From Chloroflexota bacterium (lineage in GTDB: Bacteria > Chloroflexota > Dehalococcoidia > Lucifugimonadales > UBA3495): DNA of 64,000 nt. Shown one piece after another: positions 36,001 to 45,000 of this stretch. The first letter of the stretch is position 1; each line of letters starts with the position of its first letter. Position numbers: made by a program. The stretch covers positions 32,001 to 96,000 of the forward strand of contig JAQBVF010000006.1 in NCBI GenBank assembly GCA_027623675.1, written 5' to 3'.

Positions 36001-39000
36001 CTACATCAAACAGGGCCTCGCCGCCGGCAAGTATGTCGTCACGGCCAACAAAGAGGTCATGGCCAAATCGGGGCCGGAGCTGATGGCCCTGGCGCGGGAG
36101 AATGACGTCCAGATTCTGTTTGAAGCCAGCGTCGGCGGTGGTATACCCATCGTCGGCTGTTTGATGAACGAACTGGCCGCCAACGAGATCCGGTCCATCC
36201 GTGGCATCATCAACGGCACCACCAACTACATCCTGACCCGGATGGCCAACGAACGGACCAGCTTTGAACAAGCGCTGAGCGAAGCCCAAGGTCACGGCTA
36301 TGCCGAAGCCGACCCCACTAACGACATCGAGGGCATCGACGCCTCCTACAAGCTGACCATCCTGGCCTCCTTGGCCTACCGCCGGGCGTTCCGGCACCAG
36401 GACGTATACTGTGAGGGCATATCTAAGCTGGAGCCCCAGGACTTTCGCTACGCCCAGGAATTGGGCTACGCCATAAAGTCATTGGCGATCGCCAATCTGG
36501 ATGACGGGGCGGTGCAACTGCGGGTATATCCGGCTTTGTTGCCCGCCGAACACATGCTCGCCAAGGTTGACGGAGTGTACAATGCCGTGGAGGTCCATGG
36601 CAGCCTCTGCGGACAGGTCCTGTTTCACGGCATGGGAGCGGGCCGGGAACCAACCACCAGCGCGGTGGTAGGCGATGTGATTGAGGCGGCCCGCAAGATG
36701 GGTGCATTGCCGCCGGGTATGCAGGACCGGGGGATTAAACCCGCGAACGGTCCTTCGGTCCGGCCTATCGGCGACCTCCTGTCGCGTTACTACATCCGCC
36801 TCGACGTAGCCGACAATCCGGGGGTGCTGGCGCAGATCGCCCAGGTGTTGGGAGACGGGCAGATCAGCATCGCCACCGTGATACAAAAAGACATTCAACC
36901 GGAGACCGGCAGCGCGGAGATCGTGATCACCACCCATCCCTCCAGAGAGGCATCCGTCCAGCAGGCGCTGCAAGCGCTGGCCGGTCTTTCTCAGGTGCGG
37001 CGGGTAAGCAACACCCTCAGGATCGAGGAGTGATTTCGGTGCAGAATCGGAGTTGCAGAATTTAGGGTTGGGGTTAGCCGTATGGGTTCTGGGGTATTAA
37101 GCACATATAAAGAACTGCTCCCTCTGACCAGCGCTACGCCTATGATTACCATGGGGGAAGGCGATACGCCGCTGGTCAAGTCCAGCCGCCTGGGCCGGGA
37201 GATTGGCTGCCCAGAGTTGTATTTCAAACTGGAAGGCTGCAATCCCACCGGCTCGTTCAAAGACCGGGGCATGGTGGTGGCCATCGCCAAGGCGCTGGAG
37301 GAAGGCACCCAGGCAATCATGTGCGCCTCCACGGGCAACACCAGCGCGTCGGCCGCCGCGTTCGGCGCCTATTGCGACATACCCACCTTCGTGCTGATAC
37401 CCAAGGGCGAAGTCGCCATGGGGAAGCTGGCCCAGGCCATGATTTACGGGGCCAAGGTCATCATGATCAATGGTAACTTCGATGTGGCCCTGGGGCTGGT
37501 CCGGGAGTTCACCGAGCGCAACGACGTAACCCTGGTAAACTCCGTGAACCCCAACCGCATCGAGGGTCAAAAGACCGCCGCCTTTGAGCTGGTAGACTCC
37601 CTAGGAGACGCCCCGGACCTGCTGTTCATCCCCGTTGGCAACGCGGGCAACATCACGGCCTACTGGAAGGGCTTTCGGGAGTACCAGGACCTGGGCAAGA
37701 GCCAAACCCTGCCCCGCATGATGGGATTCCAGGCCGAGGGTGCCGCGCCCATCGTTCGAGGCGAGATTGTAGCCCGGCCGCAGACCATAGCGTCGGCCAT
37801 CCGTATCGGCAACCCAGCCAGTTGGAGCGGGGCAACCGAAGCCCGCGACAGGTCCGGCGGCGTGATCGATTCGGTGACGGATGACGAGATACTTGAAGCC
37901 TACCGGATGCTGGCCAGCAAAGAGGGAATCTTCTGTGAGCCGGCGTCGGCGGCCTCTTTTGCCGGCCTGGTGAAGATGCACCGCCAGGGCCTTGACCTGC
38001 ACGACAAACGGGTCGTGTGCATCTGCACCGGGAATGGTCTGAAAGACCCTGACCTGGCTGTAAGCAGCGCCGGGGGGCAGGCGATCGAGGTTGCCGCAAC
38101 CATCGAGGCTGTTGAAGAAGCTACCCTTGGTGGCTAGGGATAAGATCTAAGCTGTCGAAACGCCTGCTCCTCACGTCGGGGCTTAGCAGGAAACTGGAAT
38201 CGGCGAACGGCGAATTGGGGGAATCAAAACGGTCCAGCAACAGCGCATAAAGCAGGCGGTCACCGAGATATTGGCGGCCATCGGAGATGATCCGGCCCGT
38301 GAGGGATTGCGAGACACTCCTGACCGGGTTGCGCGGATGTACCAAGACCTCTTCTCCGGTATTGGCAGCAATGTCGATGACGCCATAGACGCGGTATTCG
38401 AGGCTGAGAGCCAGGACCCGGTGATCGTGACTGGGCTGGTCTTCTACTCCGTGTGCGAGCATCATCTGCTACCGTTCTTCGGCGAGGCCCGTATCGGCTA
38501 CGTCCCCAACGGCAAGATCTCCGGAATCAGCAAATTGGCCAGGGCGTTGGAAGTTGCAGCCCACCGCCCTCAGGTCCAGGAACGGCTCACCGCGGACGTT
38601 GCCGGCTCCATATTCAATGTGCTTCAACCCGAGGGCGTGATCGTTGAGTTGGAGGCGGAACATTTGTGCATGGCCATGCGGGGTGTTAACAAACCGGGCA
38701 CGCGGGTGCTCACATCGGCCAGCCGGGGAGATTTCAAGAATTATCGATCGGGACAGCAAGGACTGCAGGCCCTGATGCACAGCAGATAAGATTCGACGAA
38801 ACCGAGTATCCGTTAGCAGTTAAACGTTGACGGAAATGGCGATTCAATAGTAGGTAAATATTGGCGAATACACCCATTACATCGTTTCAAGACATTCAGG
38901 CGGACTGGGAGTCTGTGCTGAAGGACTGCCCGGCCGACACTCTGTTCATATCTCCCGACTGGCAGAAGGTCTGGTGGGATTCCTTCGGCGATGGCCGGAC

Positions 39001-42000: not shown

Positions 42001-45000
42001 TGTGTATAACCGCACCCCCGGGTCGTTGTTTGAGTCGACTTCCAGCCCGATCTCGGCCAGTCCCACCGACCGCAGATGCTTCATACCCGCATGCAGGATG
42101 TGGCGGCTCAGACCCTGGCCACGGAACTCTGGCGTCACCCCAATCATGCCGATCATGCCCCGGGGACCATTCTCTGACGGCACCATCACCGTCCAGCAGT
42201 AGCCTGCCGGCTGGTCTCCCCGGAACAAGAACACGATCCCGGCTTTGGACGTGTTGGGCATGCTGGCCCGGTACGCGATCTGCTCCTCGGTATTGGGACA
42301 GAACCCCCAACTGCCGGTGAAAGCGGCATTCTGGACCTGAGTCAGTAGCGGCGTGTCGCCTGGCTGGAAAGATCGCACGGAGTACCCTTGGGGAAGCTCC
42401 AACTCCGGCAGGCTATCCTCACTCCAGAGCATGTCCAGGTAGGTGCGCGCAGGGGAAAACCCCAGCGATTCCAACAGGCTGCCTCTTTCCGAGTCCGGGG
42501 GCACGCAAACGTGGGCCACCGCGACGCCCATACCCTGCGCCCGTGACACGGCCCGCCGCACCAACGCCGCTTCGTCCGGGCTGCCGGCCGGCGCCGGTGA
42601 GGTCAAAACTTCGATCACTGAGCGGCTGATGGGGGCTTCCGAGTACACGAGAGCCATCCCCTTAATCTCCCCGGAGACTTCCAGAACGAAACAGTTCTCA
42701 GTCGGTTCCAATCCGGGTTGACCCAACACAGCATCAAAGGTGGTGCGGCAGAGCTCGTGTAGCTCGTCGTTGGTGCCGTTCTGGGAAGCCACGAATTCGA
42801 CCAGGTCTGATCTGAGGTTGTTGGTGTAGTTAACGACTGGCAATCAGGTCTTCCAGGCTGGTAAACTCTGAAACTGGGTGGTGAAGACTGAGGCTGACGA
42901 AATTCGACGCCAACCAGCGAAATGGGCGGCGGATGAGCCGGGTGGTTCTTGGCGTACCGTGCCTACAGAGCCGTGTCTGGTGGCTGGGGCAGATTGTAGC
43001 AGAGTATCCTACGGTTCACAACGCCGGTTGATACCGCCTTTAATGGTAAATGATTCAAGCCACATAATCGTTAATGAATACTGATCTGGCACTTTGGTGT
43101 CTGATTCCGTAACACAAACCGGATAAACCCTTGGCGACGAGTCTGGCCGCGGATGATTGCGGTCTGTTCCAGCGCCACAATCCCTGCATCCCAGGACATG
43201 GAGACACGCCAACGCCAGGCCATTAGGAGGCCCCGATTTAATGCCCGAGCCAATGCCCGAGCCAATGAATGAAACCCCAGAGCGAGTTCTGGTTGTAACC
43301 CCCCACCCGGATGATGCCGATTTCTGGTGCGCCGGTACCGTCGCCAAATGGCTGGACGGCGGCGCGTCGGTCCGCTACGTGCTTTGCACCGATGGAGGCA
43401 AGGGAACCACCGACCCCAACATCTCTTCGGCGGCCCTTTCCAAGATGCGGGAACAGGAGCAGGCGGATGCGGTCCAAGCCCTCGGCGTGCAGGAGTTGGT
43501 GTTGCTGCACCACCCCGACGGCAGCCTTGAAGATAATGACGAGTTCCGAAGGGAGCTGGTCCGGCAGATTCGCCAGGTACGCCCGGATGTCGTGCTGTGC
43601 CCCGAGCCCTACCGGAAGAACCTGGCATGGCACCGGGACCACCGTATCACCGGGCAGGTCGCCTTGGACGCCGTATTCCCGTGCGCACGCGACCATCTGC
43701 ACTTCGTCGAGCTATGGCGTGATGAAGGCTTGGAGCCGCACAAAACGCCAACCATGTTGTTCTGGGGGACGGAAGAGGCCGACACGATATCGGATATCTC
43801 CGAGTCGTTTGACGCCAAGCTTAAGGCGGTCAAGGCGCACAAAAGTCAGATGGACGGCCATAGCGATTCCGAGATCGCAGACTTCGTCAAAGAAAGGGCC
43901 AGAGATGCCGCCGGAAACTCCGGACTGGAATTAGCTGAAGCCTTCAGGAAGCTCACCTTTCGGGTCTAACTTTCTGGGTCTAACCTCTCGGGTCTAGCCT
44001 TCTGTGTCTAATCGGACGGGATCGGAGGCGGTCAACGTTGTTTGGTGCTTGGAAAGCGACCGCCTCTAAAGAGCGCCGGTACCTGGGTCGTTCAGCAATA
44101 CCGGTCTCAGCAAGGGCAGCGCCGGGCCGCCAAACGAGAGCAGCCGGTCGTGAAACGTCTTGAGACTGTAAGCGCTGCCCTGCTCTCGCTGGTAATCCTC
44201 CCGCAGCTTCAGGATCATCAGTTTGCCCAGGGTGTAGTTCAGGTATCCGGGGTCAAAGGTGCCCCGCAGCGCCTCCCGCCGGGCCGGCAACTCGGCCATA
44301 TAGGCGTTCTCCATGAAGAACCGGGTGGCGTCCTCCAGCGTCATTTCCCCCGTATGCATCCCCAGCGAGCACATATAGCGGCAATTACGGACCAGGGCCT
44401 CTAGCAACTGGGTCAAGAGCAATCGCGGCTGCCCCGCTCCGTACCCGGTTTCCAGCATCATCTCCTCTGTGTAATGGGCCCAACCCTCGGTGAACGAGTA
44501 GGCCGTTGCCACTCGGTTGACCAGCGGCAACTCCCGTCCGTATCGGTTGTGCAGGTGATGCACGAAGTGGCCGGGGTAGACCTCGTGGATTGAGATGGTC
44601 TTCAACGTGTCGTAATTGAAGTTGGAGAGCCACTCTTCGCTCTGCTGGACGGTCCAGTCGTCTTCCACCGGCGTCACGTAGTAGAAAGACTCAGTGGCCT
44701 TCGTCTCCAGGGCGCCGGCGCTGTCCATGGCCGCAAAGGCGTAGCGCATGTAGGCCGGCGTCTCGATCACCTGACAGCGGTCCTCGGAGGGCACGCTGAT
44801 GACGTCAAAGTCGATCAGCGACTGCCGGATGTCTTCAAGCATTTCCCGCGTTTCTGGTATCAGCCGCTGGGCTTGGGGGTGGTTACGGCCGATGTCCTCG
44901 ACGATCTCTCCAACCCGCCGGCCCGGTGAGATGCTCTGGGCGACCTCTTTGATGCGGGAGAGGTTATCTTCCAGATTAGCCTGCCCGATGGCGGCAATCC

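Follow-up and report, generated by a model that had tools for sequence, protein, structure and literature searches.

How is cysteine joined to a mycothiol-like cofactor in a bacterium that has mycothiol-type enzymes and no gene for MshC, the usual cysteine-joining enzyme? The question is raised by a marine SAR202 bacterium of the Chloroflexota (assembly 91.4% complete, 5.7% contamination, 48 contigs), and in particular by five genes at 38861-43969 of the window, by which we mean the whole 64,000-nucleotide stretch that was analysed. The survey's finding had read these genes as part of a mycothiol-like pathway without MshC, employing a new ligase, and had named two candidates: the Fem-like protein g01105 of the cluster itself and g00143, a cysteinyl-tRNA synthetase (CysRS) fused to a GT2 glycosyltransferase on contig C2. 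The general reading fits everything that we tested; the fusion candidate was not supported. Our proposal, to which we give about an even chance, is that the cluster specifies a mycothiol-like pathway and that a Fem-type transferase takes the part of MshC in it. Gene content, gene order, conservation, fold class, conserved residues and phyletic patterns were computed directly, and a literature search found no paper on such an operon.

Gene content of the cluster and the genome

The cluster is as compact as had been described, its five open reading frames matching the earlier coordinates exactly:

38861..39838, + strand: g01105, Fem-type (FemAB-like) double-GNAT transferase (Acetyltransf_6 PF13480, 103.5 bits)
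39835..41046, + strand: g01106, MshA-like GT4 glycosyltransferase (MshA TIGR03449, 342.6 bits)
41225..41971, + strand: g01107, DUF502 membrane protein (PF04367, 80.1 bits)
41938..42843, - strand: g01108, MshD-like two-domain GNAT (MshD TIGR03448, 83.4 bits)
43157..43969, + strand: g01109, PIG-L/LmbE-type deacetylase (PF02585, 106 bits)

Just upstream lie hom and thrC, here as in G159, G300, G195 and G045. Elsewhere in the genome we recovered the mycothiol-type enzymes that the survey had listed, above their cut-offs: the mycothiol-dependent formaldehyde dehydrogenase (FDH; 653.5 bits, cut-off 512.9), mycothione reductase (NF005884; 509.6 bits, cut-off 501) and six TIGR03083 proteins, with a seventh match under the cut-off. 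The inositol-1-phosphate synthase domain is likewise present. Two MshB-like genes had been claimed; tblastn with g01109 as query returned one MshB/Mca-like gene, on contig C29 (MshB 168.7 bits, cut-off 224), and did not find the second. The MshC model TIGR03447 (cut-off 485.1) reached at best 328.7 bits (contig C8) and 214.7 bits (C2) in this genome and passed its cut-off in none of the 101 genomes that were sampled from the order (68 of high quality, many closed), in agreement with the absence reported before. Searches of the genome for BshC and GshB found neither.

The glycosyltransferase g01106, whose start overlaps the g01105 stop by 4 bases, is matched best by TIGR03449 (cut-off 462.5; next model 152 bits). 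Among solved structures, sequence comparison places it nearest to the sucrose-phosphate synthase Tll1590 (260 bits) and C. glutamicum MshA (236 bits), with BshA at 62 bits. Catalytic, UDP-binding and acceptor-phosphate positions are kept in 53-58 of 58 family members. The probable reaction is GlcNAc transfer to a phosphorylated acceptor, for which inositol phosphate is the likeliest choice. Against a mycothiol-like role counts the valine that g01106 has at the Lys78-equivalent position, where most relatives keep lysine.

For the PIG-L protein g01109 the best model was BshB1 (98.4 bits, cut-off 182.5), followed by Mca (51.4) and MshB (39.9). Homology to relatives starts at residues 10-44, and translation probably begins near residue 29-37 of the listed frame. 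Among distant loci, at least 19 have a PIG-L gene directly after the GT4 gene and 4 have one directly after the Fem-like gene; we propose that g01109 is a GlcNAc-conjugate deacetylase. g01108 aligns to positions 20-287 of the 294 of TIGR03448, at a score below the cut-off of 163.1, and its homologue adjoins the GT4 gene, on the opposite strand, in the same-order genomes G159 and G300. Of five other genomes tested, G105 has an MshD-like gene (82 bits) and G016 a weak match (46 bits). We propose that g01108 N-acetylates the added amino acid; against this counts that most other operon-bearing genomes tested are without MshD-like and Mtr-like genes. The DUF502 gene g01107 is present in the complete loci of close relatives and was not detected beside the operon in G159 or G300, nor in other classes; it is a family-specific insertion whose membership in the pathway is doubtful. 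Every pathway protein scores under its NCBIfam equivalog cut-off, as the survey had cautioned for the MshA-, MshB- and MshD-like proteins; this counts against our reading, as does the higher score of g01109 with BshB1 than with MshB.

A Fem-type fold for g01105

By sequence, g01105 gave weak FemAB-type matches in a family scan and none to the solved Fem proteins in the PDB; its best NCBIfam match, also weak, is the crotonyl transferase BspF. This last match counts against a tRNA-dependent reading, as does the fact that tRNA dependence is not universal among PF13480 proteins. The AlphaFold2 model (pLDDT 95, pTM 0.90) is closest to S. aureus FemX (Z 22.2) and FemA (22.1) and to W. viridescens FemX (21.0); Sbb17 with streptothrisamine (20.2) and Sba18 are also among the top folds, and L-PGS/MprF score 17-19. 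Canonical acyl-CoA-dependent enzymes carry the motif Q/R-x-x-G-x-G/A, and none is visible after strand 260-268 of g01105. All 30 aligned homologues keep Y306-K307, and a basic helix at 163-176 is conserved. A review (PMC12945691) names Lys305 as the catalytic residue of FemX, places the tRNA contact on a positively charged helix of GNAT domain 2 and describes Orf11 as Gly-tRNA-dependent with streptothrisamine as its substrate. Lys307 of g01105 is a putative counterpart of FemX Lys305.

The gene is found in 99 of the 101 order genomes. In distant Chloroflexota a GT4 gene adjoins it at 28 of 29 loci and at 5 of 20 further ones (33 of 49 together; PIG-L alone adjoins it at 4 of the 20), and adjacency by coordinates was seen in 13 more genomes. 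Two observations count against our reading: in families f25, f32, f47 and others the gene stands solitary among housekeeping genes, and eight genomes with a Fem-like match (E<=1e-10), two of them complete single contigs, have no inositol-phosphate synthase domain. Taken together, fold, GT4/PIG-L linkage, near-universality in the order and the phyletic pattern described below support the survey's Fem-like candidate. We propose that it is an aminoacyl-tRNA-dependent ligase and acylates a glucosamine intermediate at its free amine.

A short MshC-like paralogue in other classes

The premise that the phylum lacks MshC held in that no gene reached the cut-off among 301 sampled Chloroflexota genomes; it needs qualifying, however, because a short CysRS-like, MshC-like gene is common in other classes (131 of 301 genomes, all under the MshC cut-off). 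This gene is new here, and to our knowledge such paralogues of Chloroflexota have not been described. They are class I synthetase cores of about 385-400 aa that lack the anticodon-binding domain and score 399-408 bits with MshC and 376-398 bits with cysS. None was found in the 101 order genomes or in same-class genomes of the phylum sample.

The distributions of the two genes are largely complementary. MshC-like genes occur in 131 genomes of the phylum sample, Fem-like genes in 90 (E<=1e-30) and both in 10. The 202 genomes with an MshA-like GT4 divide into 67 with Fem only, 101 with MshC-like only, 10 with both and 24 with neither, and 66 of the 99 without this GT4 have neither. FDH is above its cut-off in 14 of the 301 (Fem only 6, MshC-like only 7, both 0, neither 1); the genome with neither is 58% complete, so that all 13 reasonably complete ones have exactly one of the two. 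Within family f32 (n=12) the counts are five with Fem only, five with MshC-like only, one with neither and one with both, the Fem-like gene of the last being split across two frames. Fem-linked GT4s interleave in the GT4 tree with those from MshC-like-only genomes, and in G100 the MshC-like gene adjoins the MshA-like GT4. Other observations count against our reading. Fem-like genes are not enriched with FDH (6 of 14 FDH-positive genomes versus 115 of 301 overall), and a test that takes phylogeny into account yielded no more than 5 independent contrasts, too few for such a test, in which MshC-like was opposite in about 3, the same in about 0.5 and no different in about 1.5 (median p 0.375). Since both genes occur in 10 of the 90 Fem-like genomes, some with an intact Fem-GT4 operon (G007, G056, G086, G210, G235, G299), the two do not strictly exclude each other and their products could differ. 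The MshC-like assignment is doubtful in family f27, all 15 of whose genomes have the gene and none the MshA-like GT4.

Proposed pathway and related systems

In the proposed pathway, g01106 would attach GlcNAc to an acceptor that carries a phosphate, most probably 1L-myo-inositol-1-phosphate supplied by the genome's inositol-phosphate synthase; some phosphatase would remove the phosphate, and the PIG-L enzyme would then deacetylate the sugar and free its amine. The aminoacyl group that g01105 would add to this amine is most probably cysteinyl, drawn from Cys-tRNA(Cys) that an ordinary CysRS has charged, and the MshD-like GNAT would acetylate the new amino group. The product would be mycothiol itself or a closely related glycosyl-inositol thiol, used by the mycothiol-type FDH, mycothione reductase, the MshB/Mca-like amidase and the TIGR03083 enzymes. 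We infer this product, like the acceptor, the tRNA dependence and the choice of cysteine. In favour of the pathway, the set of GT4, PIG-L, amide-forming and MshD-like proteins mirrors MshA, MshB, MshC and MshD.

The order of chemical steps would be that of actinobacterial mycothiol (Ino1, MshA, MshA2, MshB, MshC, MshD), with which the genome also shares inositol-phosphate synthase and user enzymes above cut-offs. It differs in having a Fem-type double GNAT in the place of MshC, biosynthetic proteins under equivalog level, an operon deacetylase closer to BshB than to MshB, and clustered genes; actinobacterial msh genes are usually dispersed. Bacillithiol synthesis (BshA, BshB, BshC) follows the same logic of GT4, PIG-L and then cysteine addition, yet g01106 scores only 123 bits with BshA (cut-off 273.7), being far closer to MshA, and BshC was not among the genes found. 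With the Fem family (FemX/FemA/FemB, MurM; Orf11/Sbb17/Sba18, PacB, VlmA, DhpH-C) g01105 has in common the double-GNAT fold (Z 20-22), the invariant aromatic-Lys pair near the C-terminus and the basic helix on domain 2, and Orf11, as described in the review, is a precedent for aminoacylating an amino-sugar amine from Gly-tRNA. Unlike that family, g01105 belongs to Pfam Acetyltransf_6 rather than FemAB, and its partners are GT4 and PIG-L rather than peptidoglycan or antibiotic genes; unlike the natural-product members it belongs to the core genes of an entire order, not to secondary metabolism. The short MshC-like paralogues probably perform the same step as g01105, occurring with orthologous MshA-like GT4s and with mycothiol-type FDH, although fold and chemistry are unrelated.

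Alternative explanations

Might the operon make something other than a thiol? A non-thiol aminoacyl- or acyl-glucosamine conjugate (for instance an osmolyte, a glycoconjugate of the envelope or the head group of an inositol glycolipid) is possible, if rather unlikely; the Fem-like enzyme would then use a different amino acid, or acyl-CoA as the donor of an acyl group, and the mycothiol-type enzymes would be transferred genes using another thiol. The sub-equivalog scores and the ten genomes with both ligase candidates are consistent with it, as are operons in small single-contig Dehalococcoidia genomes (f4) showing no mycothiol-type FDH and the lack of MshD-like and Mtr-like genes in G021, while hom and thrC could hint at a different amino acid. 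Tandem GNATs that use acyl-CoA, one of them a glucosamine N-acetyltransferase, also lie structurally near g01105 (Z 15-17), but tRNA-dependent folds lead them by 4-6 Z units, the acyl-CoA motif is not visible, and the SAR202 cluster holds an MshD-like gene. Moreover, if an amino acid other than cysteine were used, it would be difficult to account for the complementarity with an MshC-like paralogue that activates cysteine and for the one-or-other rule in FDH-positive genomes.

That g00143 is itself an MshC-like cysteine ligase, or a CysRS reserved for the Fem-like enzyme and required by it, we consider improbable. The genome has no MshC and g00143 is its second gene of CysRS type, the fused form occurs in 60 of the 101 order genomes, and one paper (PMC2922099) documents paralogous synthetases that feed Fem-type ligases. 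As the survey itself had noted, however, g00143 scores as a true CysRS: it covers cysS positions 1-462 of 466, anticodon-binding part included, at 410 bits, above cut-off, against about 211-215 bits for MshC, and in the PDB it matches CysRS over its full length at 272-302 bits and MshC at 153 bits. No fusion turned up in 41 of the 101 order genomes, 99 of which have the Fem-like gene, and eight operon- or Fem-bearing genomes that were checked have a single CysRS (G021, G069, G105, G259, G258, G076, G016, G073). In G007 a long-ORF CysRS is the only full-length one and must therefore serve translation. The genome has only one tRNA-Cys gene, and the neighbours of g00143 (a CoA-transferase, MgtC) give no link to the cluster. 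The evidence does not support it as a substitute for MshC, since it is a complete CysRS and is not needed where the operon occurs, and favours g01105 because of its aminoacyl-tRNA-dependent fold relatives, its GT4 adjacency and its near-universal presence in the order. A canonical pathway whose MshC is merely missing from an incomplete, 48-contig assembly is more improbable still, given that neither an MshC above the cut-off nor the short paralogue turned up in the order sample or among the genomes of the same class in the phylum sample.

If the proposal of a Fem-type ligase is true, these bacteria would have a new route to a redox cofactor, in which a Fem-type enzyme replaces the usual cysteine-joining enzyme.

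Results

A mycothiol-like gene cluster below equivalog level

The survey's finding had placed a compact set of mycothiol-type genes at 38861-43969, and this was borne out, as five open reading frames fit these window coordinates exactly; coordinates shifted by minus 32000 (6861-11969) did not match gene edges.

Genes of the cluster (window coordinates)
g01105: 38861-39838, plus strand; Fem-like protein, 325 aa, Pfam Acetyltransf_6 (103.5 bits)
g01106: 39835-41046, plus strand; MshA-like GT4 glycosyltransferase, 403 aa
g01107: 41225-41971, plus strand; DUF502 protein
g01108: 41938-42843, minus strand; MshD-like GNAT protein
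g01109: 43157-43969, plus strand; PIG-L protein

The stop of g01105 and the start of g01106 share 4 bases. The open reading frame of g01105 starts at 38861 with TTG (region 38861-38917) and the public protein record begins at its residue 19; since residues 1-18 are kept in relatives, the TTG is the likelier start. The genes hom, thrC and folE lie 5' of g01105 (window 35636-38789), and a DUF885 gene and an S41 peptidase gene lie on the 3' side of the cluster. In some distant Dehalococcoidia (loci L031, L044, L052 and L053) thrC and/or folE keep their place 5' of the Fem-like gene; the position of hom, thrC and folE may reflect inherited synteny or hint at an amino acid or pterin link. The gene of the DUF502 membrane protein (41225-41971) stands between the GT4 and MshD-like genes in the window's family only, and its 3' end overlaps that of the convergent g01108 by 34 bases. 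A scan for promoters and terminators gave results at chance level. No RNA data set was listed as containing the stretch, and two DNA runs that contain it may be its source.

Among NCBIfam models g01106 fits MshA best (TIGR03449, 342.6 bits, cut-off 462.5), the next model scoring 152 and BshA 123 (cut-off 273.7). The MshA cut-off is reached by none of the 301 genomes of our phylum sample, where scores run at about 300-420 bits. The top model for g01109 is BshB1 (98.4 bits, cut-off 182.5), with MshB TIGR03445 at 39.9 (cut-off 224.35); the BshA and BshB1 scores thus stay below bacillithiol equivalog level. On MshD TIGR03448 g01108 reaches 83.4 bits (cut-off 163.1), the two-domain span being present (model positions 20-287 of 294). 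That the genome holds no MshC, as the survey had it, was confirmed: the best scores on TIGR03447 (cut-off 485.1) are 328.7 bits for the housekeeping cysteinyl-tRNA synthetase (CysRS; contig C8) and 214.7 for a CysRS-glycosyltransferase fusion (contig C2). Neither BshC nor GshB was found in the source genome (G000), whose assembly is 91.4% complete. The cluster would work like mycothiol or bacillithiol synthesis, and, being below equivalog level for MshA, MshB, MshC and MshD, it is therefore not filed as a mycothiol pathway proper.

The thiol-using enzymes reported by the survey were recovered over their cut-offs, namely the mycothiol-dependent formaldehyde dehydrogenase (FDH, 653.5 bits), mycothione reductase (509.6 bits) and six TIGR03083 proteins. 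The genome also has the inositol-phosphate synthase domain. Co-occurrence with the latter was discarded as a discriminator because 274 of 301 Chloroflexota genomes have the domain; in several genomes of family f27 the open frame that holds it is ~620-640 aa long, suggestive of a fusion. An MshB/Mca-like gene of actinobacterial type matches over its full length on contig C29 (L114:817-1683 = G000:C29:26816-27682; MshB 168.7, Mca 143 bits), and two further BshB-like PIG-L paralogues (L112:1040-1783, L113:746-1468) are 40-42% identical to g01109.

The acceptor of the GT4 protein

In a PDB search by sequence g01106 matches the cyanobacterial sucrose-phosphate synthase Tll1590 (260 bits) no less well than Corynebacterium glutamicum MshA (236 bits). 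Those MshA residues that we take to hold UDP-GlcNAc and the acceptor phosphate are, in C. glutamicum numbering, N25, K78, Y110, H133, T134, R154, R231, K236, E316 and E324, and g01106 itself has equivalents of N25, Y110, H133, T134, R154, R231, K236, E316 and E324, which 53-58 of 58 GT4 relatives share. Equivalents of Asn25, Tyr110 and Thr134 are kept in 53-54 of 58 GT4 relatives, and those of TeSPS His158, Arg178, Arg249, Arg253, Glu331 and Glu339 in all 58. In the characterised synthase Tll1590 the acceptor phosphate is held by Arg105 and Arg178, according to the excerpted text of its description (PMC7264703). The Lys78/Arg105 equivalent is Lys in most relatives and Val, preceded by His, in the window's SAR202 lineage. 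To judge from sequence, the conserved positions point to a phosphorylated acceptor for g01106, not to inositol specifically, because Tll1590 has the same positions. That a PIG-L gene lies close by suggests GlcNAc as the sugar; inositol phosphate would be the acceptor.

Fold of the Fem-like protein

An AlphaFold2 model of g01105, built from an alignment of 30 homologues (pLDDT 95, pTM 0.90), has as its nearest solved structures aminoacyl-tRNA-dependent transferases, its predicted double-GNAT fold being most like FemX/FemA; Foldseek gave E 7e-14 and TM 0.67.

Structural neighbours of the g01105 model
Staphylococcus aureus FemX (6snr): Z 22.2, rmsd 3.5, 292 residues aligned
FemA (1lrz): Z 22.1
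Weissella viridescens FemX (4ii9): Z 21.0
Sbb17 with streptothrisamine (9wqx): Z 20.2
L-PGS / MprF: Z 17-19
Acyl-CoA tandem GNATs (glucosamine N-acetyltransferase, clavulanate tandem GNAT, MshD, VipF): Z 15-17

The excerpted part of a 2026 review (PMC12945691) describes Orf11 as a FemABX-like enzyme that depends on Gly-tRNA and makes glycylthricin from the amino sugar streptothrisamine, names Lys305 as the catalytic residue of FemX and has the tRNA acceptor stem contacted by a positively charged helix in GNAT domain 2 of FemX. All 30 aligned homologues of g01105 keep Tyr306-Lys307, and a conserved helix rich in Arg and Lys spans residues 163-176; Lys307 would be the equivalent of FemX Lys305. 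At the level of Pfam, g01105 matches PF13480 and not FemAB (PF02388), while some of its relatives also match PF04339 (FemAB_like). A PDB sequence search with g01105 returned nothing meaningful (best E 0.45), and in a protein atlas it falls in Chloroflexota clusters only, under generic GNAT names.

Linkage and spread of the Fem-like gene

The gene neighbourhood is fully kept in close relatives of g01105 (75-79% identity), which is not very telling as to function; a single-protein locus search likewise gave six close SAR202/Dehalococcoidia MAGs of identical synteny and one 25%-identical, unlinked homologue. At greater distance, an MshA-like GT4 gene lies directly downstream in 28 of the 29 best distant loci (35-44% identity; the 28 include the unpublished genome G227, locus L019), and the start of a PIG-L gene is visible at the locus edge in 17 of those 28. 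A further 20 loci comprise 5 with an adjacent GT4 gene (among them G159 and G300 of the window's order, where an MshD-like gene also lies on the opposite strand), 4 with PIG-L right after and 11 in which the Fem-like gene stands alone among housekeeping genes, the flanks of such unlinked genes holding nothing else. Fem-GT4 adjacency was found by coordinates in 13 more genomes. Overall, a Fem-like homologue is present at E<=1e-10 in 115 of 301 phylum genomes, and in the order sample in 99 of 101 and in all 68 of high quality, the two misses being 85% and 77% complete.

The CysRS-glycosyltransferase fusion

The survey had named two candidates for the cysteine-ligation step, the Fem-like protein and the fusion g00143 (L002:1510-3714 = G000:C2:134223-136427; 734 aa), and the former was supported, the latter not. 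The fusion consists of a CysRS catalytic domain, a CysS_C anticodon-binding domain and a C-terminal GT2 domain. On cysS it reaches 410 bits, aligned to positions 1-462 of 466, against 211 bits on MshC; in the PDB, solved CysRS structures match at full length with 272-302 bits and MshC with 153. With the anticodon-binding domain kept and a better fit to CysRS than to MshC, an MshC-type ligase was rejected. Of the 101 order genomes 60 have the GT2 part, almost always in a frame of ~730-800 aa; in eight genomes with the Fem-like gene, G016 and G073 among them, there is a single CysRS. In our reading g00143 is a functional CysRS to which a GT2 domain has been added, not the ligase. CysRS genes in long frames were also seen elsewhere in the phylum (G007, G111, G216). 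In the source genome ARAGORN lists 50 tRNA genes, one of them for tRNA-SeC; tRNA-Cys has a single gene (C43:66924-66999), and a second was not found.

A short MshC-like gene in the phylum

The MshC cut-off of 485.1 bits is reached in none of the 301 phylum and none of the 101 order genomes. The model does match in 131 of the 301, with 354-410 bits and for the most part in open frames ~400-430 aa long (for example loci L046-L051; G128:C52:38245-39333; G100:C37:7099-8319), and we know of no description of this short CysRS-like, MshC-like gene. For six of the proteins (385-399 aa) the scores are 399-408 bits (MshC) and 376-398 bits (cysS); because they align only to cysS positions 1 to 323-399 of 466, the anticodon-binding part is missing. 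The top PDB match of one of them is solved MshC (325.7 bits, against 317 for Escherichia coli CysRS). A full-length CysRS is present besides the short gene in G231, G224, G111 and G223. The flanks of six MshC-like loci hold no homologue of the cluster's GT4, PIG-L or GNAT genes; in G100 the FDH gene adjoins the MshC-like gene. In f27 the MshC-like call is doubtful, since in the one genome of that family checked (G009) there are two copies, each matching only cysS positions 1 to 368 or 391, and the MshA-like GT4 is found in 0 of 15 f27 genomes. The short gene occurs in none of the phylum sample's genomes of the window's class; among the 101 order genomes every one of the 11 MshC-model matches at E<=1e-100 has a frame of CysRS size (477-621 aa).

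Apparent alternation of the two ligase candidates

Genomes by ligase candidate (Fem-like at E<=1e-30, MshA-like GT4 at E<=1e-80; related genomes, so that counts are not independent)
All 301: Fem-like only 80, MshC-like only 121, both 10, neither 90
202 with MshA-like GT4: Fem-like only 67, MshC-like only 101, both 10, neither 24
99 without GT4: Fem-like only 13, MshC-like only 20 (15 of them f27), both 0, neither 66

Unpublished genomes are included: G145 (FDH-positive and one of 6 Fem-positive genomes in family f32), and G038, G173 and G272 among the MshC-like and GT4 positives. An intact Fem-GT4 operon is kept in 6 of the 10 genomes with both genes. Within f32, all 12 genomes of which were searched, 5 have the Fem-like gene only, 5 the MshC-like gene only, 1 neither and 1 (G040) both; the Fem-like gene of G040 (C3:17351-18263) falls into two overlapping frames (292 + 109 aa), either because it is a pseudogene or through a frameshift in the assembly.

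In a quickly computed maximum-likelihood tree with 58 MshA-like GT4s, the Fem-linked proteins interleave with those of genomes carrying the MshC-like gene only, and the Fem-adjacent label requires at least 4 changes. An independent-contrast test on this tree gave 5 pairs, with the MshC-like gene opposite in ~3, the same in ~0.5 and no difference in ~1.5 (median p 0.375), and because the pairs are so few it neither supports nor rejects complementarity. Second MshA-like GT4 copies (L092-L095 and L100, from G056, G086, G235, G007 and G016; 316-330 bits on MshA) form a separate paralogue clade, present in some genomes whichever ligase candidate they carry.

Discussion

The reading that we find best supported is that g01105 would transfer the cysteinyl group from Cys-tRNA(Cys) to the amine of glucosaminyl-inositol, in place of MshC, and we put its chances at about even. 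The main rival, a cluster product that is not a thiol, seems to us rather unlikely. The Fem-like gene is not enriched in FDH-positive genomes (6 of 14, versus 115 of 301 in the whole sample). A non-thiol product sits less easily with the way in which the two candidates are distributed over the 14 of 301 genomes with FDH over its cut-off: six carry the Fem-like gene only (G000, G016, G073, G082, G145, G216), seven the MshC-like gene only (G083, G091, G100, G118, G119, G224, G296), none carries both, and the one with neither (G190) is 58% complete.

Going beyond the single cluster, it is conceivable, at somewhat less than even chances, that in much of the Chloroflexota, SAR202 and Dehalococcoidia included, the main low-molecular-weight thiol is cysteinyl-glucosaminyl-inositol, that its cysteine comes from Cys-tRNA via a Fem-type transferase, that tRNA-dependent and ATP-dependent MshC-like ligases were swapped several times in the phylum, and that this would be the first redox cofactor with an aminoacyl-tRNA donor. 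Supplements aside, our literature search turned up no paper in which mycothiol, a Fem-type ligase or an MshC-like paralogue is described for Chloroflexota.

Mycothiol and bacillithiol are the textbook substitutes for glutathione, each with a dedicated cysteine ligase. If our reading is true, a tRNA-dependent Fem-type ligase would be a third, unrelated solution and would give charged tRNA a new role in primary metabolism. It would also offer a testable candidate for the novel thiol of unidentified structure that is recorded for Chloroflexus aurantiacus in the excerpted text of a commentary (PMC6336425). The apparent alternation of Fem-like and MshC-like genes would represent a natural experiment in non-orthologous gene displacement. 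SAR202 bacteria are abundant in the sea and, in the deep ocean, break down recalcitrant organic matter; Dehalococcoidia are organohalide-respiring. If true, the proposed pathway would bear on the redox and detoxification chemistry of SAR202 and of the dechlorinating Dehalococcoidia.
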